Source of the DNA: Marsupella aquatica
Lineage: Eukaryota > Plantae > Marchantiophyta
Length of the DNA: 64,000 bases
NCBI GenBank assembly: GCA_973895155.1
Contig: OZ316895.1
Location: 4,901,181-4,965,180, forward strand
Reading direction: 5' to 3'
The position numbers were made by a program, and so were the translations under genes. Every line of letters begins with the position of its first letter. Position 1 is the first letter of the stretch. The notes beneath the pieces were generated by a model. That model was not told where the DNA came from. It did no database searches and saw only the letters and a program-made list of their open reading frames with translations. Of this stretch, positions 22,758 through 57,725 are shown piece by piece.

Positions 22758-23519
22758 AAGGTGAACTTCTAGTCTAGTTAGTAATAGATGAAATGAGATG
22801 CAAGAAGGTTTGCATTTTGAACCTTTAAAGTGGCCATTCACACGTACAAATGGAATAGTGGAGTAATTAACAGCAGGGAAATCGACAATAGCAAGCTGGG
22901 TCAGATATCAAACATATTGTACGTTTTAGCGTTGGTCGCGCTGCCACCTAGCCAAAACATGTATTCGCGAAGCATTATAATGGAAAAACACGTTGTCCAG
23001 AGCATTCTTGGGGCTATCGCGTCTAGATTTTAATTTCTTTCCAATTTCCCGAAACGGCATATCTTTCCGGACGGACGCATCTAAAACGTCGAATTTGTGC
23101 GGTTGGCGCCAGATTCTCTTAAATTAATTTTGTTATGCGTCATAGTATTCGTCACTCCCCACAACCTGGTGTGGAAAAAACGCGTAGAAAATACAAAGCT
23201 AGTGTCAAGTTGAAGAGTAAAGGATGCCTTGGATTCGTATGAAATTATGCATCTCTTCCACTGAAACCACGGATGCCTTGCATGGTTCAGAGACCTGCTT
23301 TCTGGATGTCTGGGCAATTCTACCGTTTGAGCTGAATGACTGGCATGCATCCGAATCCTCCACTGAATTATGAAGGATTACTGTCAGATCACAATTTGTG
23401 GAAAAACGTCTGTGTGTTTGGCGAATCATCGCATTTGATTCTTTAGCAAGCTAGGTTTCCGGATCTCACTTCCTGTACAATCACTTGTGCATATATGATG
23501 GAGATCTACAGTAGGATTT

Positions 23520-26500
23520 ATGGGAGAATACGACGACGTCGTTTCCATAGAAAAGTCATCCCACGGAGGTAGTCCAGCTCAATTTCTGCAAATGATAATA
23601 TCAGAAGTGAATGCTGTTGTTGATCTGGTGGTGAAAGCCACTACGTTTACCACTCAGTTGCAGGATGGGTGGTTTAAAGGTTCGGCGGAGCGTGAGTCAT
23701 TTCAAGACAAGGTTTGGGTCCTTAGCGCAAAGCATGTGCTGTGGAGCGAAACAACTGCAGAGATATGGCATTGTCGAGGACAAGCATTTACTGCGTCTAG
23801 TGAAGGCAGCCGAGGAAGCTCTCGAGAAGCAACAGCAATCGGTGCGAAAACTCAAGAAATCTCCATACAGGAGATGGCAGAAGAGGATATTCCCAGGCCA
23901 GCTCTCATACTTACTGGATAAGGTGTTGGAAATAGTGGATGCTGGCCCGCAATTGCTTGCAAGCAGGGTTGCCAACAACGATCTAGTGGATAGATACTTG
24001 GCACAGACTCCGGCCTCATTGCCTTTTGGTCCGGATAGAAACTATGTGCCAATTGCAGATTCAATCGTGGCGGTACGAAATACATTGGAGAATACAGAAG
24101 GACCCCGAGTAGTGACAGTTTACGGAGGCCCAGGAATGGGGAACAGCAGCCTACTGAAATATTTGGCTATTCACTACCAAGAAGAGCAGAAGAGACAGCA
24201 TGCAGGGAAGAGAGTAACCCAGCTGCTACTCGAACTGCTGGAGAATCTTGGGTTTGGAACTGGATATGCAACTCCAAATGGCTCTAGCAGCACTGGCACA
24301 GATGTACACGAAGCGGATTACACTGCTTTATCTTCAAATCAAATCAAACTCAGATCTCGCTTGGCTGAGCAGGAGTTGCTGGTCATCTTGGATGACTTAT
24401 GGCAGCCAGAGGTATTGCAAGAGCACCTCGTTCCTGCAAAGGGCGTTAAATGTTTGGTCACATCTCAAATGCGAGACGTTCACCGTTTTGCTGAACAGAT
24501 CCAGATAAACAGGCCCACCCTCAGAGAATCTAGCCGGATCTTGGCTAACTATACTGACGGACTTCCAAGAAAGGGTGAATTTCCTCACAATGTGAAGTTA
24601 AGCTTTACAGCTCTGTTTCGTCAGATTTGCAGTAAAATGATGTTCACCACTCACGGCTAAGGTTTTGGCAAGACTCCGTTTCGAGTATTTAGGCTTTTGA
24701 TAAATTAAGGCATGAGCCCAATTGTCATATGTAATACAGCCACTGTTATAGTTCCAATTAGCATAATCTTGTGACTGACACTTAACCCTAGTACTTGCCT
24801 CTGGCAGAGCATTGCAGAGGATATTTTGGACTGTTACATATACACCCGCTCCCTTTGGTCAACATTGGCATCAGCATAAACAGGAGTCGGGCAACTGATA
24901 TCAAACAGTGGGATGTGATAAAGAAACATATATACAACCACCTTGATGAGAATGATAACACTCCACCTGCCTTTGACAGGCCATACAGTCTTCCCTTCAG
25001 TGCATCGATGATGCTTATGGTAGAGTCGCTGCCTGCAGAGGCACAACGGCTCAATTTCTTGGTGGCTTTGTTGAAGGGTCAAAAGTTGCCTGAATCTCTA
25101 GTGAAGTATACAGCTTTATTCCAAAGGATAATCATGAGAGGTGTTTGGAAGACAAGTCACTGATTAAATTCACTGTACGAGGAGATAGGTCAAATGTAGA
25201 CATTCATAGGTTGAGGACGCAATACATTTTAGACAGAAAAAAGCCTGAAGTGAGATCTATAGGTTCTCAGATATTAGCTGCCAGTGGGGATCAAGATGTA
25301 GCTAGGCTTAGAAGGACCGTGGAAGCAGAGGAAACACTGGTCACTGTTTTAAGCGCGATTTACTACGATGAATCGCTCAAAGATGTTGTAGCGGGGACTT
25401 TAGAGAACCATATTACTTTCATCAATGATGGGGTCATTCCACGGAGTTTGAATGCAGAGACAGACAGACTTGATTTCGTTGAGACTGCAAGACGAAAGCA
25501 TAACCAAATCCGAGGCCTTGTTTGGCTCTTGAATGGTGATCATGAAGAAGACAACTGGAAACAACAAGTCCACGAGTCTGCAAAGAAGGTATTGTTAATC
25601 ATTTACCTTCGATCAAGTTAAAATGTCTCAGTTGTGTATTTCTGCTTCAAAGATTTCGGTGAATTACATTTTTTGAAACAGAACATGTCTCAGTTGTTCA
25701 GATATAGACCGATGCGAATGCGCTTAATGTTGAGCTTGTCCTGTTTGAAATCAGTCGTGCAATGCTGCTTATTAGTGAACGTCTCCTTTTCTCAAACTAA
25801 TGATAAGATTAATTTTGCGTCTACCTAAATTTTAGTAAACGAGAAACGCGATGTTCTTAATAGGCTCCGCGTCCGCATCACATTGTATAATTGTGAAGTG
25901 AGTGCAGTTTTCTTGCAGTTTGGATAGCAACCACATTTATCAATGGCTAATACTCGGGGCTTTGGGTGATTGTGACAGATTATTGCCAAGGGAAACTGGA
26001 GGACAATAGTATGGCACACGTACTCCAACTCATGGCTCTCTATCATTGCCACGCAGTAGATTCCTGTGAGCGCAGTGCGACTTTTTCAGAGGCATATGCT
26101 TAGACAAATCAAACTCTGTTGAAGCTGTTGCATAACAATGCCAGATCAATGAAAGAACGAACTGATGTCATCGCTGCTCTTCTGCATGTTCTTGGTTATG
26201 AAAGCAAGCACTACATTTGCAAATTTGCCGCAAAGTATGAGAAACCAATTATTATTTGCCATGAGTTGAAATAATAATCTGAGTGAGTCTGCCACACGTG
26301 CATTGGCACGAGATTCGCATGGTAGAGGGATTCTTACGATGGCAGAGCCTCCTGAACTTTTGGAGCTCTCTTTGTGGTACTAGTAGAACCTGGGAAATGG
26401 CGGGTTCAAACTTGCAGTATACATTATGAGTTATTTATGTCAGTACCGGCTTTCGGCCCTCAGAATTGCTGTTTCGTTGGACGCTTTTAAAACGCTCTTC

Positions 26501-31600: not shown

Positions 31601-32825
31601 CATATAGCCAGGCCAAATTAATAAAAATAGCATATTCAATCATGAAATTTAAACACTATAATAGCAAGTGATCTTGCTATTTCTTTCTCACACTGTCGTT
31701 ACAAAATGTCATTCTCTCCCCTCCCCCACTATCCCCAAGTGCCATTTGATTATGGTCACATTTTTATCCAACCATGAGATGGGCCTAAAGGTTGCCGCTG
31801 TATACCTTTTTCTGCACCCAATTTGCCCCTCTCCCAATAGCTCATACAACCACGTCTCATACACTCCTTGAAAATAATGCAATTGTCAGGATGACTTGCC
31901 AAGTCCCCATCGCCTCCCACTATCTGGCTATTTAAGTTATGCTTAAACAACACTTCCTTTCAACATCACTTAATATTGACAATACTGACTGTACAAAGTA
32001 CACGGGAAAGTATGAGCATTGCACTACTGAGTAAGACTCATGATACAAGCAAAGAGTCTGGGTTTTCCCTTAAAGCTGATGGCACCCCAAACTACACTGG
32101 GCCTCCCAAACCAGCTCATTACAGACCAAAAATCTGCGGTTCCCGCAAAACATGACTGTCAGTAACTCAGATGGTCATCGCACCGACATATGCACCAAAG
32201 TTGCTTTGCACAATATATATATATGTGTCTGCACCCTTCAAGAATCATTGGCGCCCATTCAATAATTGTCAGCACCCAGTTGACCCGCCCAAGCATGTAC
32301 ATTGAAACCAGTCTCAAAAGTGAAACCCCGTGGATTGATTTGGGTTGAAAGTTGGGTTTCAGTCATGCGCATAGATTTCCTAGGACAAATGACTGCAAAT
32401 AAAATGAGAAACAGCAAATTTGACACTCCCTACTAGTGAGGGTTGTCGTCACCCCTACTAGTGCGGGTTTTCCTCAACACTGAGGGCGAGTTCACCAAGG
32501 GGGAACAAAAAAGTGAAATTTCTCGTCTGGGCAGCACAGCCGGTGCCCAAGACGAGAAATTCCACTGCGGCCCGTTGCTGTTTTGGCCTTCCAGAGGGAA
32601 GGAAAGGCTCCCTCTGTCCCTCAGTCCCTCTCGACCGGCCTCGAGTTTCTGGGCTCGCAACTGACAGATGGCGCGCAGGGGCGTGTTCCACGCGGTGGGG
32701 CAGAGTCAAGGAGGGGTCCAGCTATCCGGACGGCGCGCCGTCAACGTCGGTCCAACGGAAACTATTTATTATTAATTAATTTAAAACTTCCGGGCTGACC
32801 GTCTCGCCGGGCCGCCCACGGCGAC

Positions 32826-32833
32826 TATAAAAA
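32826..32833 (+). promoter_or_regulatory. Candidate TATA box / Pol II core promoter of the hairpin-cluster host transcript
   Basis: TATAAAAA follows a GC/CpG-rich stretch (32560-32825) and precedes pyrimidine-rich cattcca/cattctc repeats ~20-50 bp downstream. No convincing protein-coding ORF follows. Confidence 0.55.
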
Positions 32834-33629: not shown

Positions 33630-36600
33630 GAAAGACAGATTCTAATGGACTGGCCAAACTCAAGATTATTCGAGAAATGAGTGTAGTCGGCGCACTGTGT
33701 TAGTATCGTCGCACTGGTCTAGTGTTTGAATGAGTGCACTGAGTGTGCTCTGAACAATTCACTGCGCCATTCCTAATCCTAAGGATATAGAAGTAAAATC
33801 AAAATGTCAAGAACCAGATCATGTGGATTTTTGACGAATGATGCACAGCAACAGCTAGCGCCCTTAATGTGAATGTCATTACAATAGACATCCACATTGA
33901 GTATGCTAGCTGCTTGCTGGGCAATGTGCTTCGAACAATTCACAGCTCCATTCCTAATCCTAGAAATTCTATAGACAGGTTCAATAGGACTGGCCAAATT
34001 ACAAGATTATTCGAGAAATGAGCCGTAGTACGTCGGCGCACTGCGTTAGTGTAATCTCGCTGGTCAAGTGTTTGAATGACTACAATATATGAGCTACTAT
34101 ACAATTCACAGCTTTATTCCTAATCCTAGGATATATGAGTAAAATCGAAATGCTAAGAGCAAGATCAGGTGAATTTTTGGACGAATGATGCACAGCAACA
34201 GCTAGCGCCCTTAATGGGAATGTCGTGAGAAGTAAACAGACATCCGCATTGAGTATGCTAGCTGCTTGCTGGGCAACATGCTTTCGAATAATTCACGGCT
34301 CCATTACTAATCCTAGGATATATGAGTAAAATCGGAATGCCAAGAGCGGGATCAGGTCAGGTGAAATTTTTGGACGAATGATGCACAGCAACAGCTAGCT
34401 CCCTTAATGGCAATGTCATTGGACACCCACAGACATTCGCATTGAGCATGCTAGCTGCTTGCTGGGCAATATGCTTCCGAATAATTCACAGCTCCATTCC
34501 TAATCCTAGGATATATGAGAAAAATCGAAATGCCAAGAGCAAGATCAGGTGAATTTTTGGAGGAATGTTGCACAGCAACAGCTAGCGCCCTTAATGAGAA
34601 TGTCGATCATTGGACACCCACAGACATCCGCATTGAGTATGCTAGCTGCTTGCTGGGCAATATGCTTCCAAATAATTTAGAGCTCGATTTTTAATAGATC
34701 CTAGTAAGGATATATAAGTAAAATCGAAATGTCAAGAGCGCGATCAGGTGAATTTTTGGACGAATGATGCACAGCAACAGCTAGCGCCCTTAATGGGAAT
34801 GTCGTGAGAAGTAAACAGACATCCGCATTGAGTATGCTAGCTGCTTGCTGGGCAACATGCTTTCGAATAATTCACGGCTCCATTACTAATCCTAGGATAA
34901 ATGAGTAAAATCGGAATGCCAAGAGCGGGATCAGGTGAAATTTTTGGACGAATGATGCACAGCAACAGCTAGCTCCCTTAATGGCAATGTCATTGGACAC
35001 CCAAAGACATTCGCATTGAGCATGCTAGCTGCTTGCTGGGCAATATGCTTTCGAATAATTCACAGCTCCATTCCTAATCCTAGGATATATGAGAAAAATC
35101 GAAATGCCAAGAGCAAGATCAGGTGAATTTTTGGAGGAATGTTGCACAGCAACAGCTAGCGCCCTTAATGAGAATGTCGATCATTGGACACCCACAGACA
35201 TCCGCATTGAGTATGCTAGCTGCTTGCTGGGCAATATGCTTCCAAATAATTTAGAGCTCGATTTTTAATAGATCCTAGTAAGGATATATAAGTAAAATCG
35301 AAATGTCAAGAGCGCGATCAGGTGAATTTTTGGACGAATGATGCACAGCAACAGCTAGCGCCCTTAATGGGAATGTCGTGAGAAGTAAACAGACATCCGC
35401 ATTGAGTATGCTAGCTGCTTGCTGGGCAATACGCTTCCGAATAATTCACAGCTCCATTCCTAATCGATCCTAGGATATATAAGTAAAACCGAAATGTCAA
35501 GATCGAGCGGGATCAGGTGAATTTTTGGACGGATGATGCACAGCAACATCTAGCGCCCTTAATGGGAATGTCGTGAGTATTAAACAGACATCTTCATTGA
35601 GTATGCTAGCTGCTTGCTGGGCAATGTGCTTCGAACAATTCACAGATCTATTCCTCGTCCTACTTACGCATTCTATGAACAGGTTCTGTAGGACTGGCTT
35701 ACAAGATTTTCGAGAAATGACTGTGGTCGGTGCACTGGGTAGTATCATCTCACTGGTCTAGATTTTGAATGAATACAATGAGCGAGTATATATGATTTGA
35801 AGAATCCACAGCTCCATTTCTAATCCTAGAATGTATCGGTAAAATCGAGAGCCAAGAGCGGGATTATAAGAATTTTTGGACGAATGATGCACAGCAACAG
35901 CTAGCGCCCTTAATGGGAATGTCGTGATAAGTAAACAGACATCCGCATTGAGTATGCTAGCTGCTTGCTGGGCAATGTGCTTCGAACAATTCACAGATCT
36001 ATTCCTCGTCCTACTTACGCATTCTATGAACAGGTTCTGTAGGACTGGCTTACAAGATTTTCGAGAAATGACTGTGGTCGGTGCACTGGGTAGTATCATC
36101 TCACTTGTCTAGATTTTGAATGAATACAATGAGCGAGTATATATGCTTTGAACAATCCACAGCTCCATTTCTAATCCTAGAATGTATCGGTAAAATCGAG
36201 AGCCAAGAGCGGGATTATAAGAATTTTTGGACGAATGATGCACAGCAACAGCTAGCGCCCTTAATGGGAATGTCGTGATAAGTAAACAGACATCCGTATT
36301 GAGTATGATAGCTGCTTGCTGGGCAATGTGCTTCGAACAATTCACAGATCTTTACCTCGTCCTATAGATTCTAGATATGAGCAGGTTCTGTAGGACTGGC
36401 AAAATTACAGGATTTTCGAGAAATGACTGAAGTCGGTGCACTGAGTTAGTATCATCTCACTGGTCTAGAGTTTGAATGAATACAATAAGCGAGTTTATAT
36501 GCTTTGAACAATCCACAGCTCCATTTCTAACCCTAGAATGTATCGGTAAAATCGAGAGCCAAGAGCGGGATTATAGGAATTTTTGGACGAATGATGCACA

Positions 36601-37560
36601 GCAACAGCTAGCTCCCTCAATGGGAATGTCGTGATAAGTAAACAGATATCCGCATTGAGTATGCTAGCTGCTTGCTGGGCAATGTGCTTCGAACAATTAT
36701 TCACAGATCTATACCTCGTCCTATAGATTCTAGATATGAGCAGGTTCTGTAGGACTGGCCAAATTACAGGATTTTCGGGAAATGACTGAAGTCGGTGCAC
36801 TGAGTTAGTATCATCTCACTGGTCTAGAGTTTGAATGAATACAATAAGCGAGTGTATATGCTTTGAACAATCCACAGCTCCATTTCTAACCCTAGAATGT
36901 ATCGGTAAAATCGAGAGCCAAGAGCGGGATTATAGGAATTTTTGGACGAATGATGCACAGGAACAGCTAGCTCCCTAAATGGGAATGTCGTGATAAGTAA
37001 ACAGACATCCGCATTGAGTATGCTAGCTGCTTGCTGGGCAATGTGCTTCGAACAATTATTCACAGATCTATACCTCGTCCAATAGATTCTAGATATGAGC
37101 AGGTTCTGTAGGACTGGCCAAATTACAAGATTTTCGGGAAATGACTGAAGTCGGTGCACTGAGTTAGTATCATCTCACTGACCGTCTAGAGTTTAAATGA
37201 ATACAATAAGCGAGTATATATGCTTTGAACAATCCACAGCTCCATTTCTAATCCTAGGATATGTGAGAAAAATCGAAATGCCAAGAGCGGGATCAGGTGA
37301 ATTTTTGGACGAATAAATCACAGCAACAGCTAGCGCCCTTAATGGGAATGTCATTAGAAATCCAGACATACTCATTGAGTATGCTAGCTGCTTGCTGGGC
37401 AATATTTTTCGAGAAATTCACAGCTCCAGTTCTAATCGTGAGGATTCTATAGACAGGTTCTATAATTATAGCCAATTAATTAATACAAGAAATCATTCGA
37501 GAAATAACTGTTGCCGGCTCAATGTATCAGTATCATCTCACATACTTAGTGTTGCATGAG
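33630..37560 (+). repeat. Recently amplified part of the hairpin array: ~190 bp monomers, a ~574 bp trimer, and ~350-360 bp units
   Basis: Spacing between successive 5' arms: 347, 193, 187, 199, 188, 187, 199, 195, 351, 351, 356, 359, ~363. Spacers are near-identical between copies. Confidence 0.93.
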
Positions 37561-40500
37561 TACATAGCATTGTCGTAGTCTGCGTGGCTGATAGGAGATG
37601 TACAAGATGGGAACTGTTCGGGTGACATTGTCAAAAGTATTGGTGTAAAGGTCTTACAGTGGAAGATGCTTGGATCTGGCGTGTAGATTACAGATGAATA
37701 TATATCTCCCTACATATGGCGTGTAGATGACAGATGAATATGTCTCCCTTAATTACACGTTTTAGCGCGCAAAGAGAACAACGTCTACACGTGAAACTTG
37801 AGAGATTGGAAAATTAAAAGTCGACCCCATGCACTGAAAACTTAAGCTGATGTGAGGTCATAATGACGAAGATTCGTCTGTCTTCTTTTATGATAGTACA
37901 TACAGGACGAATCTTGCAATCCGTCGGGGCCCTCATCGGAACGGGAAAACCTAGCAAAGGATTCTTTGGGGCGATAGAAATTGCATGAACTATACTGGGA
38001 TCTGAGCGAACTCTCTGCATCACTAGGGTAGATTCCAAGGGCCGAAAAATCAAGTGGATTCAGGATTGTCAGATGGTCTCAAGTAGGCATTTCTCGAATA
38101 ATCCATGTAGTCCCACGGAATCTGTCTTTCGTGATTCTATAATTAAGACCTTACCCTTACAGGAGCGCGCTTTGTCTCAGCATTCCTGTAGTCAGAACAT
38201 ATTATGAAGACGTAGTCCAGCTCCAGATACCCGCCACTTGAGAATGATTGATTCATGAACTGACTGTTATTTGGTTGTCATTTACTTCCCTCAACATCGT
38301 TTCCGTTAGCAAATGTGACATTGCTTAGAGATATTTATGGCCGGGAGACGCTCGAAGCTTGGTACATATCAAGCTCTAGCGCCCCTGATGCTAGCTGCTA
38401 GCTAGGTGACAAACTTCTCACAACTTACTTTTAATGTCATGATAAATTAGGTTCTACCGGGAGCAGCTAGCTTCTTCGTCCATAATTGGTACATGATCAC
38501 GTAGTTTTGTGTAGATTTTCAGTTTTTCAATCTAGAATTAGTTCCATTCGTGAAAACCATTTCTATCAAGTGACCAAGCTAGATAGAGCAATTACTAAGG
38601 TGTTCGAGGAGTCAGTGATCTTAAAAATGGTGTCACCTCTACAGTGCTGACAGAAATACATACCTCGATCACAAATTAACACTTCTCCATTAAGCACGAG
38701 TAAGCATTGTTCAGCTGCTGTCTATTCTGTTGTCACACGGAGCAGTCAGAACCCTTTCTACTGTCTGCACTCGAATAAATACGTTCTTGCAGGGCCGAAT
38801 CTCTTATCACACCATCAGAATGCAATCTGGCATTCTTTCTATTTTAATGTACGTAGAAGAGGCGAATGAAGGTTGATTCTTAGCAAGAGGTAGTTAGTCG
38901 CATTAATGGGGATGTCAGCGAACTTGGGCTGCTCGTTTGACTGCCATTTGAGAGGAGTCCAAAGATGTCCCAATGGATTCTGCTTGCTCGTTGCTAGGGA
39001 ATGAGTTTCAGGTGACTCGTCAGCTTAACGTACGTACTCAGTACTTTCTCCCGTGCTTAAAAGACCCAGACTGTATAAACAATTAGTTTAAGTGGTGATA
39101 ATTAAATCAGATACGGCCGCATACAAAACTAACGATAAAGTTTTTGTTTAAATGTGGATAAGGTTCTGTTGCTATTCACCTAAATGTCCAAATTCGGGGT
39201 CCAAATATCTGAGTGTAGTATAATATGACGGGATATTTTAACACTGATTTGATGTCAACTACAAGTCCATGGAATAGGTAAATAATCGGGTAAATAATAC
39301 GTGCTGCTGTGGGGCCTACTGTTCTTAGTCCACTACTTTTGTCGTCGACCTCGGCTTGCTATCATTTATGTAGGACCCAACATGTTACTACACTAGCTGT
39401 ACTATATGTAAAGCGGTAAGTATAATATTATTCTCATTATCTTGGAACACATAAAGTCGATAAGTAAAAATGCATTCCCCTTTCTGACTATTTCTAAGGT
39501 ACGTTGATAGTGCTATTTTTTAAGTCAGCCAGGTTTGTGAAATGTATCAAGAGCAAGAGCTAGCGCCCTTACTAATGGCGGTGTCATCGTATTGGTAACC
39601 AAAGATATCGACGTTGAGTATGCTTGCTAGCTGCTTGCTGCAGAGCAGTACGCTGCTAGCTAGCTAGCACTAATTAAACAATATTTCTTCATTTCTCGGG
39701 TACATTTACTACACCTTCTTAATTATCGACAACAACACTCGACCATATATATGTGAAGGCATAACATTTCAATTAAGGAAAGCTTTCAAGGTTGAATTGT
39801 CTGCGGAAGTATGATGCACAGCAAGCGCTAGCGCCCTTAATGGAGATGTCACGACGTTGGTAATTGACGGACATCCACATTGAGTATATATGCTAACTGC
39901 TTGCTGGGCATTATGCTTCTCACAATTCACAACTATTCTTAATGTTAGGACAAGGACGAAGTGTATCACACATTGTCATTAATTACATTAACAAAGAGCT
40001 CATATAAACATCTGGACGATCAAATGAATGTTAGATAAAGAGTGGTTTTATGAATAGTGTGGAGCATGATGCACAGCAAGAGCTAGGGCCCTTAATGGAG
40101 ATATCGATCATGCACGAAATTGATAATGAAAGATATCCACATTGAGTATGCTAGCTGCTTTCGATCGATCTGGGCAATGTGCTTCTCACAATTTACAATG
40201 TCATTTCTGCTATCAACCTCGGGGCCTAAATAAACATAGGACACCTCTTCAATTCGCTGTATTAACAAAAGTACATGTTTTAGGGTGATAACGTTGTTTT
40301 TAGAATCAAGGCTGGTTTATGGTGTATATATGAATTGTCTGATAGAAGTATGCTGCACAGCAAGAGTAGCGTCTTCAATGGAGATGCTGAGAAATTTGCA
40401 ATTCAGTGTAATGCTTGCTGCTTGCTGGCCGGGTAGTGTGCTTTTCACAACTCACAACCACACTTTTCTTCTCTCATGGCTCTCGCCTCATCGAGTATGC

Positions 40501-43500
40501 ACATATGTGTAGTCCTGACACATTCATTTTCACTGCGTTCACACATTAAATTAGGTGGGTAACCTTGAATGTTTTCAAAATTAAGGCTGGTTTATGAATG
40601 GTCTGAAGCATGATGCGGGGCAACAGCTAGCGTCCTTGATGGAGATGTCATAAAACTGGTCATTAAAGACATCCATATTGAGTATTCTGGGCAGTATGTT
40701 TCTAGTAATGCGCAACCAGAATTTTGTACTCTAAAGGGTGTACGTGGTCTAGGTCTATGTTGTTCTCACTTTCACGTACTATATTAGCAAAACTGTGCAT
40801 CATATATTGTCTAGGTTTCAAGCTAGGATAGAGTACATGTTTTCTTTCTGTAATTCAACCGTGGTTCTTAAATTTGTCTGAGGAATGATGCACAGCCAGC
40901 GCTAGCGCCCTTATTAATGGAGAAGGTCTACATATTACGTCACATTGAGTATGCTAGCTGCTTGCTGGGCAACATGCTTCTTTCGATTTGTAGTCTGATC
41001 GACTCGATCTCTGCTTATGTTTGGGTGCACTTTTTGATTTGATCTGGATGGCTATAGTAATAGTTTTGATTTGCTGTTGTTGCCTGCGGTAGTTAAAATG
41101 AAGGATGTGAATTGTCTGAGGTATGATCGATGCACAGCAAGCACTAGCGCCCTTAATGAACATGCCTAAATATGGAAATTCTGCGACATCTACTTTGAGT
41201 ATGCTAGCTGCTTGCTGGCCAATTAATATATATCTTTTAATTTCCACTGGTGCTCTATCATGATCGATCTCTCTCTAGGTCTGGGTCAACAAATTGTTTT
41301 GATAAATAAAGAGTACGTAACAAATTTGATTTTTTGCTTTTGTCACCTGCAATATTGGTTTAGAGCGTCAGAGGATATCTTTCCACTACAAAGACTTGTC
41401 TTATCTTAGGTAGAAGCTAGATGTAAATGAATTGTCCGAGGTGTGGCCGGTGCACCGCAAGCGCTAGCGCCCTTGATGGAGATGTCTAATTATGCGAACT
41501 CTACGACGTCCGCATTGCTTTCTGGGCAAGATGCTTCATTCAATTTATACTCCGACTCGATCTCTGGTTAAGTTAATTTTTTAATGAAGCTCTCTGTAGT
41601 TCGGATAAGGTATGTGTTTCCTTTCTGTAATATATATATTTTATATATGTGGATGCCTTTTTTTAATTCCCAAAGTAATCCACATTATATTGAGTACGCT
41701 AGTTGCTTGCTTGGCAATATGCTTGGTAGAATTTAAAACTTCTCTTTCCTACTCTTATGGTTTGCCTAGTATGGATATGAAAAAAACTATTTGACTCTGG
41801 AAACAATAAATTCAATTCTCAGATTGATAAAACATTTCAAGAGTAGGTATGCCTTGTTCGATGTATGATGCACTGCACACTGCACAGCAAGAGCTGGGCA
41901 GCGCCCTTAAGGCGATGCCATATATCCCTGTGATAACGGTATGCACATTGATTGTGCTAGCTGTAAGTTGCTGGCAATATGCTCTTTCCAAGTTTTACAT
42001 GGGGGTGGCCTGGCCTAAAGTCATGAACCGAACAACTCCTGGACCACTCAGACTAAACATTCATGTCTCACATTGATATAACGTACATTTCAGGAGTAGC
42101 TAGCAATGAATTGCTTGATGTCTGATGCACAGCAAGCGCTAGCGCCCTCAATGGCTATGTCATGAAATTGGTAACAAAAGGCATCCGCATTAAGTGTGCT
42201 AGCTGCTTGCTGGGCAATATGCTATTGAACAATTTGCAACTGCTCTTTCCCAGTCTCATGCATGCATGGGTAGCCTACAAATATAAAGCCAAGAATTGCA
42301 CTCAAACAAAAACAGTACGTGTCAGATTGATAAATCACTTCAAGAGTATGTATGAAGTGAATTATTGGATGTGTGAGGCACAGCAAGAGCTAGCGCTCTT
42401 AATGGCAATGCCATCACATTGGTCGATCAGCAAAAGCATTCACATTGAGTATGCTAGCTGCTTGCTGGACAATATGCTTCCTGATATTCACCGGCCGTAG
42501 TACTTTTCTTTAAATTTATTTCTTTGACCACGAAGTCTCAGTTCCTAAACGGATTAGAACTTCACCTAGCTAGATCGGCTACGGTAGGAGACAGAGCTTT
42601 TTATTATTTTGAAATATTTCCTTACCTTTAAGAAGGTCAGAGGAGCACGAATATCACAAGGGCATCAAACCGATATATGCAATATTGTAATGAACAACTA
42701 TACCAAGGTTCTGTTAGGAGCAGGGAATATAATTCCAGCAAGGAACTAAGTCTCTACATTCCGAATTGGTTTCTTTAATTAATCTCTTCGACAAAGTAAA
42801 CTCACAGGTACGTAATTTTGCAGCTGAAGACGAAGACCGCCTGCCCAAGAACCTAAGGTTTATTTATGGTACGTATTTGACTGAGTTCATTGTGTCACTT
42901 GCCCGGTCACATGTGGGGCAACATGCATGTGAGGCAACGTGCTTGAACCATTTGAAACGCGAGGGAAGATTCTCGTTTGCTACCGATTACCCGACCGATT
43001 GCAGGTACATGACAGTTTCAGATGGATTAATTTTTTAGAGTTTAGTCCAGCCTTGCAAGGGGACTGTTACGACCCATGTACATTTGCAATTAATTGCGCT
43101 AATGTAAACTGTTTGAGACATCGTGTAGCTGGGAAGAAGGCTGGCAGGGTAGGATTATTCCGTTCAGACCCCCTTCAGCCCAGCTGGTACCGATGTTTTC
43201 AACTTCAGTGTTATTGACCATCGTTGGCAACTGCATCGATCTCATAGTCTAAGAAGACGAAGTAGCATAATACCCAGCGACAGGTCCGATTCAACCGACG
43301 AATTACAAGCACAGTAGCAGCTAGGGGAATCGATCACAAAATAAGGTGGATTATATGGAAGAATTTTAGATCCTGTTTCAGAAAGTTCAAACAAGCGTCT
43401 GAGTTGCTTGTCACCTGCAATATCGGTCTGAAATGGTAGACAGTCCCGCGCGAGTCTCAGATCAAACTTCTCTACGTATAGCTTTCCACTGTCCCGCAGT

Positions 43501-44990
43501 AGACATGCAAGTTTGTATATTAGGCGTTGGCAAAATGGTTTCAATAACAATGTGAAGATATGAATCGCTAGTGCCCTAGATAGATCTCTAAATATTCGAC
43601 TCACCGACATCCTCACTGAGTATATATGCGTGCTGGGCAATAATTATGCTTGGTTCGACTTGTACTTCAACTCCATCTTTGGATAAGTTCGAGTCAATAC
43701 TTTGACTAATGAAGAGAATTAAGTAATATTGACTTGCTTCTATCGCTGCAGTATTTGTCTAAAAATTAATTGTCACTACCGGTCGAGATATTAATGTGGG
43801 GACTCAACGACATCTACACCCGTATCTACATTGAGCCTGCTAGCGGCTGCTTGCTGGGCAATATGCTTTATTCAATTTGTACTTGGGCTCTATATATCAT
43901 ATCTCTCAGTAGGTTTGGGTCCATCAATTTGTTTTGATCAAGAGTAAGTATGAATTGTCGGTATGACACGTACACAGCAAGTGGTAGCGCCCTCAATGGA
44001 GATGGTCTACATATATATTCTCTGAAACTCAATGACATCCACATTGAGTATTCTAGCTGCGCGCTTCCTGGGCAACATGCCTATTTCCATTTGTAGTCTG
44101 ACCCGACCTCTGGTTATGTTTGGATCAACTTTTAACCGATCAAGAGTAACAATTTTGATTTGCTTTTGTTGCCTGTGGTATCGGTCTAAAAGTGAAGGTC
44201 ACTTAGGAGTCTCAGGGTATGCCTTTCCACTCCCCTTTCCACTATGTACAACTCATTAGACTGCAGTTTTGTACGTATTATAGGTTAGTAAAACATAAGG
44301 GCCGTCTTGCATGTGCAAGAGTCCTTTAAAAAGCGGCCCTTACCTGCCCACAAACGTCGGGAAAAAGTGTGTGACCAAATCAAAACACGGTCTTTCAAGT
44401 CAATGCTCCACTCAGTAGCGTGTCTTCCTTTGTTTTTTCCACCCCTTGAGAATACAGGCTCAAAGAGTAAGCATGTGCCACTTAAAGGGTATATAATTTG
44501 GGGACCCTCACATGCAAGATGGCTAGGCAGACGTATATATATGAGTTCTACGAGGTATGGTTCACAGCAACCGCTACCGCCCTTATTGGTCGGAGATGTC
44601 TAAATATATATTGGAACTCAACGACGTACATCTACATTGAGTATGCTAGCTGCTTGCTGGGCAACAGGCTTCATTCGATTTGTAGTCTGACTCGATCGAT
44701 CTCCGATTATGTTTGGGTCACCAATTTCTTTTGATCAAGCGTACACACCAATTTGAATTTCTCCTGCAATATAGGTCTAAAGCTTCAGAGCTTATCTTTC
44801 TATTTAAATTGACTCCACAGTGTTATATCTTAGGTACAAGAAGTAAATGAAATGTCGAGGTATGATGCACAGCAAGCTCTAGCGCCCTCAATGGATCTGT
44901 CTAAATATATATCGGAACTCGACGACGTCCACATTGAGTGTGCTAGCTAGCTGCTTGCTGGGCAATACGCTTCATTCAAATTGGGCTTGC
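33820..44990 (+). ncRNA. Tandem cluster of ~28 (+~5 remnant) imperfect stem-loops; putative polycistronic pre-miRNA cluster of one family
   Basis: Each unit has a 5' arm TGCACAGCAA(C/G)(A/C)GCTAGCGCCCTTAATGG..ATGTC, a variable ~9-25 nt loop, and a 3' arm GACATCC.CATTGAGTATGCTAGCTGCTTGCTGGGCA. The arms are imperfect reverse complements (~36 bp), extended by a lower stem tgaattgt..gtat / atgct..acaattca. 5'-arm starts: ~33842, 34189, 34382, 34569, 34768, 34956, 35143, 35342, 35537, 35888, 36239, 36595, 36954, 37318, 39552, 39815, 40070, 40354, 40614, 40889, 41131, 41451, 41881, 42126, 42378, 43971, 44561, 44866. The repeats are seen directly; the miRNA interpretation is inference. Confidence 0.75.
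44301..44523. mobile_element. Possible small MITE inserted between hairpin units
   Basis: gccgtcttgcatgtg (44301-44315) and cacatgcaagatggc (44509-44523) are reverse complements at 14/15 positions. No clear target-site duplication. Confidence 0.4.
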
Positions 44991-47427
44991 ATGGGCTCTA
45001 TCTCTGCGTAGGTGTGGGTCTAAACAATTTGTTTTGATCAAGAGTACGTACATAAAACTTGCGATTTTTCTCCTGTCGCCCTCGCTGTCGCCTACAATAT
45101 CGGTCTAGGCATAAGAGCACATATATCTATTTACTTGTCCTTATATCTAGTCTATTGCAATTAAATAATAAACTTTATCTTGAATATTGCTTGATGGGCA
45201 ATGAATGTTCTTTTGAATTGGTGACTCTTCTTGATCTTGAATATTGTTGTGTCTCTAGAATATTGTTGTGTCTTTGGGCCCTCACTTCTAATAAATATGT
45301 AAGTGAATCGGCCAGTCGATCATGATCACTTTTTACTTACCCATTGTTATTTTTATTTTACTATAAAAGGTTTTTGATCATTTATAATTATGAGTTTGAT
45401 CGAATAATTATGGACCCCTATTAGTCCCTGACACAAGGATGCGTCACTTCAGCGAGTATGGTGACAAATAAGATGGAGCAGGTTTTTTGGAAAACAAAAA
45501 GATCCTTGTCATGTTTGTGTTCATATTTACGTAAATTATAGGATGGCATATCATAAGTATTAAGCGTAAAAAAACAAAATACAAAGGAAGAGATGTAATG
45601 TTTTTCACTGTAATCTTATTAGTTACCATTCTAGTGTTTTTAAATTATTTACTGTGTAATTAATTAAATAATTGTCTCTAAAATAACGTAAGTAAGTAAT
45701 GGCATACTTGATCCTCTTTCTTTTGATGAGAGAGATACCAATGAGAGATGATTTGTGAATACCTAGGGTACTACCATTCTATCACATTGCGTCGAAGAAA
45801 CAGAGAAGTGATCTTCAGTTGAGTTTTGAGTTTGAATTTGAATTTAATTTGAGTTTTGAGGTGAATGGTGGATACAGTATGATCGTATAACTTGCACACA
45901 CTTAAAGAACCGTCATTGACTCAAGAAGTGCAACATCATAAAATGTCCACCTCCCTTTCTCTATGAAGAGATGTCACAATCCCGTCACCGTCACAAACTT
46001 AGCCGCTGCAAATATTGATTTCTTTGATTATGTTGTCGTCGCTTGTCCGCAATGCTTACTTCCCGGCTTGAATTGTTTGCGTCCCTCCAGGCTTCAACTA
46101 AAGCTCACTCTAAACACAAGTTGATGCCAAATGCAGCCTCTATGTCTAATTGAAGAAACAATTGCTGGTCTCCCCTCACACCATGGCTTTCTTAAATTTA
46201 AAAGACTACAAATTAAACCTACATGTGAAGTGATGGCTCGTTTGTTTTGTGTGTTCTTCCCACCAAAATGACAAGCGTTCTTTGGCCAATAGTTGAGTGT
46301 TGTCTTCCGGTCTGTCTTGTGACCATACTGCTTAACATAACTCACAAACAATCATCAAGAATCATGGTAGAAAAACGATTTCTCCAATGTGTAAACGAAA
46401 ATCATAAAAAACTCAATTCCTTCACATTCAACCTTCCATTTGATAAACTAGAGAGATCATCTCAACCAGATCGATCTCTAACTTGTATCTTTCAAGTGTT
46501 CTCTTTTGTACAAAGTATTGGGCCTAGCCACCCAGCACCCTCACCAATCCCAACACCCATGCCTAAGTGCCCTTCATGCCCTTCATGCCCTTCATGCCTC
46601 CATGAAACTTCTTGAGCAAGCAACTTGATGTCTCTTGCACCCCCCGGTGGTCACTCCCATACAAAGCCACACTTGCTCCGTAACACGACCGTTGCTCAAT
46701 GGTCCTCACTGTTTGCACAAGCGACCAAGCACTCCGATGAGTAATCCAAAGGATCTAGACATTTCAAGACTAACATCCTAATTCAAGCTCAAAAGACATT
46801 GGTAAGTAGGTCAACGAATAGGTCCTCCGGCCTTGGTCTGCATGGCCTTGCCATAAGCCAACACTAGAGCCGACACCCACTATTCATCCAAAACAGTTCC
46901 TCTTTGGATGCAGCCCGTGCTCCCCAACGTACCTATCCGTCACTGGCTGACCGCCCTGCCCCCAGGACCCTAACCCCCAAGCTTCACATGACCCAACTAG
47001 CTTCTAATGTTAGTCTAAGTTCTTAATGTGTGCCATTAGGTCAATGCATCACCTTTGCTAGTACAACGCCTCATTGTCCACAAGTCTCCCTATATTTAGT
47101 ACCCACCGAATCAATAACCGTCCCGAGGGCTTGGACTATAAAGAAGCTTGACATTGGAATCAGCAATACTAAAGCTAAGTGGTAGGATAGTGGAATTTGG
47201 CAACTCCTCCTAAAATGTAAGAAAAATACATTTTAAAACCTCTATAAAGTTGAACCCTAAACTTGGAATATTCCAAAAATAGACTCTAATGTTCTTACAT
47301 ATATAAGTCTCAAAATAGAATGTAAAGGACCCTAATGTTTCTCTCAGAAAATTCTTAAGTAAGTTTTTTTTTAGAACCATAAAACATTATCCTTTGTCGC
47401 ATGTGATGTGTCATTTTTGTGGAAGTG

Positions 47428-50569: not shown

Positions 50570-50691
50570 CACTAGATAGAATCCCTTTCTCTAGCAATAG
50601 CTAGTCGTGCTTCTGACTCCACAAAGTTACACTAGATAGAATCCCTTTCTCTAGCAATAGCTAGTCGTGCTTCTGACTCCACAAAGTTACA
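50570..50691. repeat. Perfect 60 bp tandem duplication overlapping the TDP1beta stop codon/3' UTR
   Basis: cactagatagaatccctttctctagcaatagctagtcgtgcttctgactccacaaagtta occurs twice in tandem. Confidence 0.95.
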
Positions 50692-53600
50692 GTCTCTGGC
50701 ATTTCCTTCCGATCATGGGCGTGAAGGGATCAATCTGGCTCCAAAGGAGTTCTCCATACTCTTCCTCCTGTTGCGAGTTTGACGCAGACTCGAGACACAG
50801 CTGAGATTCATCCCCATTATCATCTGTGTCAGATCTTGCCATCTCTATCTCGCTATCGTCACTTGAGCCGCTTTCTAGAAGTGACAATTTACTCCTCAAG
50901 CTCTCCGCAACGTTATACATTGCTTTCTTTGTGGCAGGTTGATCCACGTCCAGATATTTTGGAGCCGGGACACAAAAGGGTAACACGAACTTGTCCAAGC
51001 CCAACCTCTCGTTATCCACGTCTGATTCCATCTTGCTCTCGTCCAAATTAGGCTTCTGAGCGAGTGGTTTAAACTGAAGTAATTTTGGACCTTCATTCGG
51101 AGGAGGCTCCACAAATACGAGGCCAACCTCGTAGTTAGAGATAAACAAGTTACAACCTAAGGTGGTTGGACGGCAGTTGCAAGGATGAACAGCTTTAGCG
51201 TGCGGCCTACCCCATGCAGCTGGGCTGAAATTATGTGATCCGCAGTAGACCCAACCGTAAGGAGCCTCTCTGGGATGGCTTTGAAATCTCCTTTGTGCCA
51301 CCTGGTCAAGAAATGAACGCGCTAATTACGGGGTCCATTTCAGCTGAACACAAATTATTGTACTTTAACTAGCATTGGATATGAGGAGTCCTGGTGACTG
51401 ACCTTCACGTGCATGGGGATGCCCTCACGTTCAGCTGGAAATGGAACGGCGTCATAGAGGATGCAAGCTGTCTTCAATCTCTCCCATGTGCTCTAAGGAA
51501 GAGACAGTTGTAAAAAGTGTTAGAATTTTGATATCTTACACAATTACCTTCATCAAGTAAATTAATTCAAATCTCAAAGTGAGGTACAGCAGGAACGCAA
51601 GTGAGGAAGAAATAGATAAACACGGTCACCAGTTCAAGAGGGATTGCCTGAGGCTCATACCTCAGCAAAGCACAGAACTGCTTGGTGGCTGAAAAGTCCA
51701 CATTTGGCAGCTTTTACACTTTGGATGGTTGGAAATACCACTCCTATAGACGGAGCGTTAGCTTCATGTTCAGTTGTCCAGGCGCCCCACTGCAGTAAGA
51801 AAAGGCGTGAGAACTCAAAATAAATGAACGTAGAAAATTATTATCAGGGAAGCCCGTTGTGAGATTGATCATCCTCATTCAAATGTCCAGGAGAACGCTT
51901 TGTCATAACTATGTGCACCTGAGAGTCTGACTCTTCAGACAAATCTGAACGAACTGCTTTCTTCCCGGCAGCAACAGAAAATGCAGCTAAAAAGGCAGCA
52001 TCCAAAGATGTTCCAATGGAAGATGAACCTGGCATGGCCAAAAGAGGTACGGAAATCTCAATGATATTGACAGATATAAATTGAGTTCACAAAAAAATGC
52101 GGAGTTTGCTCAGAAGCTTAATTACGAAATAATCAAAACGGAAAACCCCATCAGAAAGAAACAAAAACTCTTAGGCCAGTCAGTCGAAGTCTACATAACG
52201 CAAGACTTAAAAGTGACTGGGTTTACCGTAGATGAAATTGGTCTCGCTTGCGTCTAGCCAATTGAACTTGGATAGAATCTGCAAGATTTACACCACAAAC
52301 AATTAGCATACAAGAAACTATTACCAAATTGCTCAACAGATAGTAAGCTCGAAGCGTTTCATATGTCGGACTATTTTGAGAGGAAGCGTCGTCCACGTAC
52401 CAAGTCTAACTTTGAGGACCTTCCAAAGACATTCATAAGCATCCAAAGGAAGTCATTTCTAGTAGGTCAGCAGGTTCTTTACTGATTTATCTAATGCATG
52501 GTATTCATGCCATAAACGCAATTTCAATAGCTAATCATCATCCTGACCTTAGATTCATTGCAAGCAGACACACTTTGGGTGAGAGACTATCTACCTGACG
52601 AAGTCGCCACAATCCAAGAGGGCGCTCCATGTTCCGTAACAAGCCGCATAAGGCTATGGTGTGATGAAGGGATAAATCCTTGGTTGAAAGGGATGAAAAT
52701 GTCCGGCCCTGCCCAGAAAGATGGCTCAGGTTTGTACAAGCTACCAAAGAAAACTAAACTCCTAAGAAAAATTTGGAAAAGGTCCTTACAATCTTCCTAT
52801 GCACCTTTGAAAAGGAGTTGAATTTCCATGGGTAAGAGAATGCTCGATTATTATAGACTTTACAGTTTATCACCATAGTAAATTACATGACATTCCTTGA
52901 TGAGAGAGACCACTCACCTCAAAAACATATAGTACAAGCTGTGGAACTTTCTTGCTCATTCCATTCGCGAGACCAATCACTTCATTTGGCCGGATGAAAG
53001 CTGCGAATGTGCAGAGACCACTGTCATAAAGGGGAGCAACCCACTTTGCTACAGGTCGTGGCAGAAAACCTATGTGTACAGAATTCGCTGGAAGAGAGGA
53101 AGACAGTGAGTCCCCAGCCACCTGCAAAAGATCTTTTCCATTGACCACCTCCATGCCACCTTGGTTTGAGTCTGAAGACACAATTACAGTCACGGCATTT
53201 GAATCGGCGGTCAAATTTGTGATTCTTTCCAATTGAACTTTAACCAATCCACTCTCCAGTAAATCTGTATTGTTCAGAATAGCTGCAAGGGTTCGAACTC
53301 GTTTCCCACATGGATCAGCGGAATCCTTGAACCTATGACTTACTCCAACCACAGTGCTCTGAACAGCAGCAAGCAACTTTCTAGTTCGCCGAACACCATT
53401 CTCTGCAGTTAATAAGTCCTGCGGTTAACGGAGCCTGTCAGTAATTGCAATGTCCGTCGCTTGCGAATATTCCAACTTTTTATCAAAGTCAGTAGTCTCT
53501 CGGTTATGTCCACATCTCGTTTCAGACGAAAACCTGCGGACTTACGTGAGGGTTATTAATACTTAGGAATTTCCACATGTTCACAGAGATTTACATATTT

Positions 53601-56487
53601 TAACAGATAATCTATCATGATTTATGCACGTTTTCCGTACATTTGAACATGTTTCATGATCAAATGAAGTTGATCGACCGCCACTTCTTTGGTGAAAAAG
53701 GACTTTACTGAGGGTGCACTCCACAACGAGCGCTGGCTTATGTGAAAGACTAGTGTACTTAGTAGCTGAATTGTCTCAGCTTGGAGGTAAGTCCAAATTG
53801 TTTACCTTCTTCACCAGGTCCCGTACAGAAGCAGGAACAGGTGGGCATGGACAGCCATAAAATCCTGGAATAGAGGTGACTAGTGATGCTGCTGCATTGC
53901 TGAAGTCGAACTCAGCCAAATCAAGAGCCCAGTGTGCTGCAGAAGGTACGTCTGCAACAAGGGAGGCTATGAAAGAAGACAAATGCATCGCAAAATCGTT
54001 TTGCGTGAGCTGCGGAACCAACACAGTTTCATCGATACCAGATGTGCAGAACAATGCCTCATAGTCGCGTAAATCTTTACGGGGAAAGTCCTGCCACCAG
54101 ACACTGTTGGTGACGTGCAGCCACTGCATGAAAGGAAGAAGTTAGAAGAAGATTCCGGTGTAAATTTCCTGGCAACATTTATGTGCAATAAGATGAACCT
54201 TATTTGGACTTACTTCACTGGTGACGCACAACAACGCAAAGAAGCCCATTGATTGGGCTCAATCTTCTACGTCATTTGAGTGACAAGCCACATCAACATA
54301 ACTAACCATGTGAGCCTTCACCGCGTGGGCTCTCACACACCCCGGTTCAGATCATTTTCTAATACTCAATATTTTGTTCGAAAATGTTCGGCGTTACCTG
54401 AGAGCGAGTGAGATTGGCTGAGGTAACAATTACACGAATCCTATCCTTTCGAGGCAAGAGAAAGATCTTGGGATGGTGACATCCGATCCCCTGTCTTTTC
54501 TCTGTAGTAAAGCAACAAGAATCTGGAAAACCAGGATATCTGCACCAAATTACCACTGGTCGGGTCAAAAGTACATTTGTGAACACAACACTACGTTCGC
54601 AAAACAGGCGTGACCTAAATGAAAACAATTGATATTCACAAATGGTACACGCTCTGGGCAAAAGATGTCTGTGAACTCACACAAGTTTGACGTTGGGCCA
54701 ATTAGGAAAAGGTGAAGAAGTACGTGATTCTTCAGCTGTACTCCAGCAGCGATCACGGTCATGACAAGCCACAGTGACGGGCAATTCAGGGGATATATTG
54801 TGTGAAGAAAGGAACCTGCACAGAATGCTTAAACCTCAATTCTATCATTAACATTGCTAGATTTAGAATTACGAGATAAAGATTGTTCTCCAAACAATTG
54901 TAATAGTACTAGAGGCTTAACCTAGAGTCATCCCTTGCTTTGAAACTAAAGACATTGGAAATCGTCTCTTAACGGCACCAAACAATTCTCATCCACAGGG
55001 AGTGGGCTTCCAATTTTTTCTCAACAATGAACTGCGAACAATTGTCCTGAACGAACTCACCACATGATGTCACTCGTGAAAGTCGCAATAAATATGCCAA
55101 GAAGACCGTCTGTAGGATTCAGAAGCTCTTGCAGAGAAACTGTCTGCTGAGAATGGACTTGTGAATCAGGTTCCAAGTCTTTCAGTCTATTTAAAAGAAA
55201 CCCAGATCCAGGGGATTTTCCATTCAAAACTCCAGTATCTGCATTGGACATGTGTTCCTGAGCGAGCCCCGTCCTCTCCAACTCGTCCAGCGTGCCTCGA
55301 TCGTCTTTCACCTCTCCTCTTAGTGAAGTTTCATCCATCACAGGCCCAGCACTGTGAGACTTATTTCCAGACATAACCTTAAAGTTGTCTGTTTCTGGTT
55401 TCGTCGCCAACTCTGCACTTGAACCACTTCTAGAGTTTTCAATATCAATAGCCTTGGCCAAGGAAATTCTCGCAGATGCAGGAGTGACAGCATCGCCATC
55501 GATCACTTGGCACCTTGATGGCCTTTCCAACAGCATTTTCCTATCCTGACAAGGTGGACTAGTCCTGGCTGAAACTTTGGCATTGCATTCTTCCGACAGT
55601 TCCAAGTTATCAAAATTTCGTTCCAGTATTTTAGAAATCTCTTTGCACTGATTCAATCCATGACCCTTGAGAACCGTTTTGCCGTCGTCCAACCCTCGAT
55701 CCTGAACCTTCGTTAACCCTGAAGACCCTTCTTGTTGTTGCCTCAACAGTCCCATAATCTCAGCGGTGGACCGTTTGGGTATCTTTCTCACTCTAGCTTT
55801 AGACGAAGTAGACGACCGGCGTTCAAATGAGATGGAACTCTTCTCATCTGTCGATCTCCATCCTCCCTCCTTACAACTAGACAAAGGCCGCTTCCTACAA
55901 AAGGTAGGCAACGGGATACAACCTTTCTGAGATTGTTCAGATCTTGGATTTCTAAGCATCCTTACATCTACTTGGACTGCTCTGGGAGGGTGGGTCGGAC
56001 ACAATGTTTTCACCTCAAAGAGATCCACCAGCTCAACAAAGAACCCAACAGCATCGCCGAACCCAGGATCCTCCACAGTCCGAGCATCCATTGTGCAGGC
56101 CACGAGAGAGACTTCAGATCCAGGATTCAAAATGCGACAACCTCCCTGCGCCAATTTCTTTCCATCCACATACAGTCCGTTCAGAGACGGCTTCATTTTC
56201 TTTCCGGGGGCCAAAACCGATGATGATGGCGTTACATTTGCACTGGTGATAAGAGCGTCCACCGGCGCACCTTCAAAGAGCAAGAGCTGGTTGGTGATGT
56301 TGTCCCAATAGACTTGGCAATGCTGGCGGCTCACCCGCGCATCTGAGAAAACGACATCGCAGCAGCTCCGTGATCTGCCAAAGGTGTAAACCCGTCCAGG
56401 AACCAAAAGCAACTCCCGATACTTCTTTCCAGTCCGTGCGTCGTACATTGGCGCACGAAGCACTCGCAGTTTGAACATCGTCGTCAT
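50687..56487 (-). CDS. TDP1beta: Tyrosyl-DNA phosphodiesterase 1 beta (FHA + PLD/HKD-type TDP1 + HIRAN), multi-exon
   Basis: FHA motifs FGRS..CDVVF...VSRQHC..SLNG; IATFTSDIMW/FL; first catalytic motif HHPKIFLL..IRVIVTSANL; VWWQDFP; LVTSIPG; HIRAN-like DSNAVTV..IGFLPRPVAKWVAPL; IGVVFPT; second catalytic motif PMHVK/VAQRRF; WVYCGSHNFSPAAWG; ISNYEVG. Confidence 0.92.
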
Positions 56488-56744: not shown

Positions 56745-57725
56745 GAGAGGCAGAGGGCAAATGTCAAGAGAGGATCTAGTAGTGAAAAGGAACGGAGACA
56801 ACAGAAAATGAGATCATCTCAAGAATTGTAGAGTAGAGATAGAAGAATCAAATAGAAATGGATGAATTATGTTCATGGCATGGACAAAAATTGATGGAAG
56901 AAGATGAGCGAAATTGAGTTCATCTCAGGCAATGGAGAGATTGGAAGGACGAGATAAATGAGAGAACGACTTCCATATGAAATGTCCGTAACACACACCA
57001 GCAATCGGAGAAAACTTCGGAAAGTACATCCTATCGCGTGGAACACATGCCCTGGAGCTCAATGCCATCGTGAGGAAAAGGGCAAGAGGAGGCAGAGATC
57101 GAGAGGTACATGGCAAACGATAATAGAGGATCTACTGATGAAAGGGAACGGAGATGACAGAAAATGAGTTCATCTCAGGAATTGTACAGAGGGATCCAAA
57201 GAATCAAATAGAAAAGGACGAATTAAGTTCATGGCACGGAGAAGTTGATGGAACAAGATGACCGAAAAATCAGATCATCTCAGGGAATGGAGAGATTGAA
57301 AGGACGAGAGAACGACTTGCATTTCATACTCCGCAATCGGAGAAAACTAAGTTCTCAAGGTTCTGAAAGTTCATTCTATCGCGTGGAACACTTGCTCTGG
57401 AGCGCAATGCTATCTTCCGGAAAAGGGCAACAGGAGGCAGAGATCGCGTACAGCAGCGATCGCAAGAATCATATAAAAAAGGATGAGTTAAGTTCATGAC
57501 ACGAAAAAGTTAATGGAACAAGATGACCCAAAAATGAGATCATCTCAGGGAATGGAGAGATTGAAAGGACGAGAGACCAACTCACATTCTATATTCCGCA
57601 ACTCACACCCGCAGCCGGATTCTCAAGGTTCTGAAAGTTCATCCCATCGCGTGGAACACTTGCCGTGGAGCGCAATGCTATCGTGTGGAAAAGGGCAAGA
57701 GGAGGCAGAGATCGATGGACAGAAG
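56745..57725. repeat. Three diverged ~270-360 bp purine-rich tandem units upstream of TDP1beta (promoter/5' UTR)
   Basis: Recurrent blocks aagaatca.ata.aaa.gga.ga.tta.gttcatg, tcatctcagg.aatggagagattg.aaggacgaga and atcgcgtggaacac at ~56840, 57200 and 57465. Confidence 0.8.

Follow-up and report, generated by a model that had tools for sequence, protein, structure and literature searches.

Tandem mega-clusters of the miR-430 type in animals combine high copy number with higher-order repeat units, and their dosage is set by amplification. They belong to the animal pathway and have short precursors, so that they serve here as an analogy only. The closest described systems in plants are clusters of a single MIRNA family. 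Rice miR395 clusters hold at most 8 copies each (PMC2812943), and the miR2118 super-cluster on rice chromosome 4 has 15 copies in about 20 kb (PMC4860694), in both cases according to the available text of the papers. Nearer in lineage are the MIRNA genes of Marchantia and Pellia, which come from the same plant group as the species studied here. Most liverwort miRNAs are species-restricted according to the available parts of two sources (PMC9291395, PMC4368373), and the first of these, a review, names in that part one polycistronic Marchantia locus of two pre-miRNAs. The small RNAs of leafy liverworts look little studied, since no miRNA paper on the Jungermanniales was found by title or abstract.

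The window analysed here is a stretch of 64,000 nt from the liverwort Marsupella aquatica. A profile search reveals 33 copies of one hairpin unit within 11.2 kb of the window (33.8–45.0 kb), all 33 on the plus strand, in an array without a long ORF. As in the miR395 and miR2118 clusters, so far as the available text describes them, the copies belong to one family, each with its own stem-loop, and lie on the same strand at short spacing as a product of successive duplication. The array differs from those clusters in its 33 copies, of which 18 of the 27 tested are structurally intact, and has no sequence relation to them (no Rfam match); the rice clusters are validated by expression, whereas the liverwort array is known from sequence alone. 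We consider that it is probably a birth-and-death cluster of plant MIRNA genes, predicted to belong to one lineage-restricted family that is not yet listed. If real, it would be unusually large for a plant MIRNA cluster made up of one family, exceeding the miR395 and miR2118 clusters as described in the available text, and would offer a compact case in which to study the gain and loss of MIRNA copies.

Arrangement of the copies

The start-to-start distance between copies is mostly 187–590 bp, and the array has the spacing and orientation expected of a polycistronic homologous cluster, in which members of one family lie less than 1–3 kb apart on one strand. It begins at 33.8 kb, well to the left of the interval 39552–44964 considered in an earlier sequence-only reading of this DNA. 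Its parts are as follows.

33810–37430, plus strand: young array of 14 near-identical hairpin copies (profile search)
38352–39020, plus strand: two remnant hairpin copies
39542–44990, plus strand: old array of 14 copies that retain both arms, and 3 fragments (41629, 43550 and 43764)
40071–40175, plus strand: copy with a G-C to A-U double change and 8 nt inserted towards the base of the 3′ arm
42105–42491, plus strand: the two best-kept old copies (42122 and 42373), with arms free of indels
44301–44523, strand not assigned: MITE-like insertion between copies, an element that ends in 15-nt terminal inverted repeats and is present in high copy number elsewhere

The left-hand array is a recent amplification, in which units of 187–199 bp form a duplicated trimer (~574–579 bp) and are followed by units of 351–363 bp. 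The upper stem is deleted from the first remnant (38352–38428), and the second (38862–39020) is diverged with an enlarged loop; a doubtful extra scrap of the unit lies at 45188 (E = 2.6 in the profile search). In the old array the spacers have largely diverged, most of them to the point where they can no longer be aligned, and 11 of the 14 two-armed copies have indels in their arms. Most copies in 39.5–45 kb are decaying rather than held by selection, and the intact ones lie mainly in 33.8–37.4 kb. Many of the indels in arms and spacers between 39500 and 45000 are 4 nt in length, and often tandem duplications.

The contigs of run X1, which may be the window's own sample, match the window with no differences over 38200–44522 and 44637–45300, and the base changes in the copies are therefore not assembly slips. 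X1 depth over the arms rises to 107 per bin against ~20, which fits the window's own copies. Over the MITE-like element it is 636 against ~20, about 30 times single-copy.

Structure of the hairpin

Folding each copy with its flanks gives a hairpin of ~135 nt including a long lower stem. Starting at the base it comprises a basal stem, the lower stem and a block of ~27 bp that is interrupted by one bulge and by an internal loop of 2 × 2; above this block are a short upper stem and a loop of 9–26 nt. In the intact copies the duplex has three mismatches and one 1-nt bulge, with 21–30 pairs below it. The candidate mature strand lies in the 3′ arm, in a register that we selected for its 5′ U rather than derived from reads.

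35948–35968, plus strand: candidate mature 21-mer of the 3′ arm in an example copy (predicted)

This 21-mer, with U as its first nucleotide, is exact in 15 of the 33 copies, and because the old spacers no longer align its retention was counted in favour of the MIRNA reading. In the chosen register 18 of 27 copies (those other than six remnants) have a duplex with five or fewer mismatches, no asymmetric bulge exceeding 3 nt and both strands of 20–24 nt, the structural criteria for plant miRNAs in the available text of PMC12594335. All 14 of the young left-hand copies are among them, together with 4 of 13 from the old array on the right (40066, 41127, 42122 and 42373).

Conservation within the hairpin is highest in the 3′ arm, lower in the 5′ arm and lowest in the upper stem and loop. 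Among the old copies 10 of 255 cells depart from the consensus in the 3′ arm block compared with 25 of 275 in the opposite arm (P = 0.02), and the duplex as a whole has 53 such cells of 723 compared with 37 of 204 in the upper stem. Opposite UGC the 5′ arm carries CA, GA or GC, the three dinucleotides that keep two Watson–Crick pairs. This asymmetry bears upon a reading in which a plus-strand hairpin RNA is diced imprecisely into siRNAs, or remains an undiced lncRNA with acting hairpins (protein-binding or decoy sites). Such an RNA would explain the strand bias described below and the conservation of the stem equally well, and yet one arm is kept better than its partner over a block of ~21–28 nt and the stems have fixed mismatches and a bulge of the miRNA type; we regard it as unlikely.

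A search of Rfam 15 with the hairpin gave no match at the gathering score. The best match below threshold is to mir-4798 (33 bits, where 75 are needed), and is a likeness of shape only. A scan for tRNA and tmRNA found none. Plant snoRNAs are often clustered, and with an AUGAUG stretch before the hairpin and ACA after it the copies might be read as a cluster of snoRNAs or scaRNAs. This is highly improbable in view of the missing Rfam match and of a fold with no large internal pocket; the hairpin has neither box C together with box D nor a pocket with H/ACA boxes, and its box C-like stretch lacks a box D partner and lies within a base-paired part of the fold.

Four motifs from the arms have no match in the full-text literature or the main text of PMC4788410 (miRBase lies outside this scope), nor in the supplements of PMC4788410 (two of three files), PMC5569507 (four files) and PMC4368373 (two files). 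Comparison by eye with the Pellia sequences tabulated in PMC4368373 (Tables 1 and 2) reveals none that belongs to the array family; the closest there is pen-miR8186, with a 10-nt overlap with the complement of the 3′ arm. The array thus appears to belong to no family found, a candidate from sequence that is unusual in size and lineage. The sole metagenome match to a 20-nt pattern of the 3′ arm (L001) lies in an apparently bacterial contig that lacks the hairpin and has no further similarity, and was set aside as chance.

Folding of the two strands

Relative to shuffled sequences, the core fold has z scores of –3.7 to –7.1 in the young copies and of +1.2 to –5.5 in the old ones. Folding is better on the plus than on the minus strand in 32 of the 33 copies; for the core of the hairpin the plus strand is more stable in 23 of 33, and both strands fold well. 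In the young copies the gap between plus and minus strands is –9.1 kcal/mol compared with –2.6 kcal/mol in shuffles. The sequence-only reading had looked to the same comparison, unit by unit, in 39.5–45 kb. There the plus-strand advantage of the 17 old units is –5.7 kcal/mol compared with –4.6 kcal/mol in shuffles of the same composition (Wilcoxon P = 0.31), which is no more than base composition accounts for. RNAalifold applied to 21 copies returns a weak consensus of –2.68 kcal/mol with a covariation term of +0.5, which is weak because broken copies and misaligned rows were in the alignment.

Good folding of both strands in the core is what would be expected of a cruciform or a protein-binding repeat acting as DNA, for example as a chromatin or recombination element. 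When arm is aligned to arm in a strand-neutral manner, G·T outnumbers A·C in 27 of the 33 copies, with six ties and never the reverse; the copies are not independent and much of the excess is inherited. This direction, together with the conservation of mismatches and bulges that a cruciform does not favour, makes a DNA-level element very unlikely.

Base changes in the paired regions

The sequence-only reading had rested its case for plus-strand RNA structure on compensatory and G:U-preserving substitutions. Direct inspection finds every string that it quoted at the unit in question. The G-C to A-U double change is present in unit 40066 (its 40070), and both arms of 39542 (its 39552) have insertions. 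Units 41875 and 42373 (its 41881 and 42378) carry the double change from U-A to C-G, which is also found in unit 40350, absent from its list. Single changes that make G:U pairs are likewise real in 39542, 40610, 41447, 42122 and 44862, but the list of singles said to make or resolve G:U was selective. The cccucaaug of unit 42122, offered as a resolved G:U, faces A and gives C·A, and changes of U:G to C-G improve both strands and are uninformative on strand. The gacguc string is present in both 41447 and 44862; as these are sister copies (support 92) it probably reflects one inherited event. The 3′ arm has lost 11 nt in 40610 and 13 nt in 41447, so that the G:U changes of these two units sit in broken hairpins.

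Across 26 core pairs, the 14 two-armed copies of the old array contain 12 G:U-making and 5 A·C-making cells, 19 other pair-breaking cells, 5 double-change cells (3 distinct) and 39 gap cells. Covariation is not significant. Double changes occur in 3 pairs compared with 1.1 ± 0.9 in shuffles (49 of 500), and the corresponding counts are 13 of 500 shuffles for cells and 53 of 500 for the score; the test used 26 distinct rows and 27 pairs, aligned by MAFFT with the upper stem of 40350 misplaced. G:U and compensatory changes picked by hand overstate selection, and the proper null for claims about G:U is the count of mirror-image A·C changes with a spacer control.

The arms are inverted repeats, and a change to G:U is therefore the same mutation, in an identical context but on the other strand, as its mirror change to A·C; a process acting on DNA only predicts a ratio of 1:1. 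Over the whole ~135-nt hairpin, counted on a tree, there are 30 G:U-making and 13 A·C-making transitions (P = 0.014), or 22 and 7 after hand-pruning of doubles and unpartnered cells (P = 0.008). Counted once per site the ratio is 15:8 (P = 0.21). For the core pairs alone it is 12:5 (P = 0.14), and 7:5 per site (P = 0.77). The spacers give 42:58 (per-site rates 0.23 and 0.28), and mutation bias therefore does not explain the excess of G:U. The hairpin differs from the spacers with P = 0.003 by Fisher's test on tree counts and P = 0.06 like for like, per site. The event tree covers 28 copies and its deep nodes are poorly supported (17–65); lower-stem columns were blanked wholly in 39542 and 41127, and on the 5′ side in 41875, 42122, 43966 and, for the most part, 41447. 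Pair-preserving changes concentrate in the upper and lower stems, and in the duplex region plain mismatches make up 21 of 31 events in the tree count.

Support for a plus-strand RNA is thus moderate and depends on the counting method. The earlier conclusion that function lies at the RNA level and on the plus strand, rather than in a neutral satellite, is still the likeliest reading. The evidence first cited for it does not carry it, and it is kept on account of the whole-hairpin tally of G:U against A·C with its spacer control, and of the conservation of the duplex between haplotypes.

A second haplotype

Contigs identical to the window, together with contigs that are ~3% diverged, are present in runs X3 and X4, which come from one study of organism B. 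Over 38200–45300 of the window organism B has two haplotypes, as in an allopolyploid or a mixed sample, and joints in its contigs suggest fuller versions of the remnants at 38.35 and 45.19 kb. Counts were made on diverged contigs covering 39426–40166 and 41882–42465, from 40 of 234 difference rows. Substitutions are found at 2 of 334 sites in the duplex, 5 of 96 in the upper stem, 7 of 121 in the loop and 24 of 774 in the flank. The duplex differs from the rest with P = 0.002, which rises to 0.025 should two unplaced differences belong to the duplex; with fully listed contigs only, P = 0.018 against the rest and 0.12 against the flank. At 41940 and 42435 full Watson–Crick pairs in the second haplotype replace the G:U and C·A, respectively, of the window. 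The latter change, to G at 42435 in the region of the two best-kept old copies, turns C·A into a C-G pair. At 42138 the second haplotype breaks a pair.

These data, with those on strand, can be set against a functionless fold-back element, derived from a MITE or satellite, that was amplified in tandem and is now decaying, while gene conversion and template switching maintain the likeness of its arms. Such an element would account for the arm indels in 11 of 14 right-hand copies, for the presence of the same 4-nt indels in the spacers and for the many pair-breaking changes without significant covariation; the left-hand array is young, and its integrity needs no selection. A process in DNA predicts equal G:T and A·C, and 30:13 was observed against the spacer control. 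Moreover, the haplotypes differ freely in loops that lie 20 nt from the arms but not in the arms themselves, all copies have one orientation, and the X1 depth over the arms fits local copies, unlike that of the repeat at 44.3 kb. We judge the fold-back element improbable. Gene conversion among the copies could nonetheless be an alternative cause of the likeness of the arms.

Putative expression and targets

A MIRNA cluster of this kind would be transcribed by Pol II from the plus strand into an RNA bearing many of the hairpins, probably beginning from a TATA-like box at 32.8 kb.

32826–32833, plus strand: TATA-like box (CTATAAAA), candidate Pol II core promoter (inferred from sequence)

The box lies ~1 kb ahead of the first copy, with a GC-rich stretch before it and a pyrimidine-rich stretch after, and its pattern has two matches in 30–46 kb, the other being at 45362. 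About 260 nt upstream of the box is an inverted repeat of 20 bp (32512–32566, 90% complementary).

Dicer-like 1 is predicted to cut each hairpin and to release the same 21-nt guide from the 3′ arm, so that copy number would set the dose of guide. Fresh copies would be born by unequal crossing-over or tandem duplication and old ones would decay, and the G:U bias would record past selection for the RNA fold, at a time when the old copies still worked. A more detailed form of this scheme is tentative, and somewhat doubtful as a whole: a family specific to leafy liverworts, amplified into a single polycistronic array of ~11 kb with 33 hairpins, of which about 18 are predicted to be still processable. 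If true, the array would be a plant counterpart of the miR-430-type dosage arrays, in which the birth and death of copies can be seen in one locus.

An ungapped scan for targets in the window outside the array gave a best score of 6.5, within the range of 5.0–7.5 found in five shuffles, and hence revealed no target there. Hand translation of the complement of the candidate 21-mer gives K-Q-L-A-Y-S in one frame, which we take to be close to the GLAYLH motif of receptor kinases. miR2118 silences resistance genes, and by analogy the candidate guide might silence a large kinase family.

Neighbouring elements

The window has further features near the array.

33650–37584, plus strand: second spacer element of ~130 nt, in eight copies between hairpins, sharing the 3′ flank of the hairpin
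50687–56487, minus strand: gene for an FHA-HIRAN tyrosyl-DNA phosphodiesterase (Pfam FHA, HIRAN, Tyr-DNA_phospho)

The second spacer element is possibly a long-decayed paralogue of the unit. It was considered as a second hairpin and rejected, as it folds no better than shuffles (z –0.7 to +1.2).

The genes of the window are intron-rich and include an ABCA-type transporter. The phosphodiesterase is presumably of the TDP1beta type; its last exon shares 79% identity with a Calypogeia fissa protein, followed by Sphagnum proteins at 41–43%, which points to a leafy liverwort as the likely source of the DNA. As a target of the candidate guide it was discarded, the 16-mer with three mismatches at 51453 falling outside the ten best sites. 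Upstream of this gene are about three diverged purine-rich repeats (56900–57720). An NB-ARC-domain gene (23499–25621, plus strand), 8 kb upstream of the array, is spread over several frames, which may reflect introns or damage. A retrotransposon at 60279–63880 (minus strand) has reverse transcriptase, integrase and a PHD finger, also in several frames.
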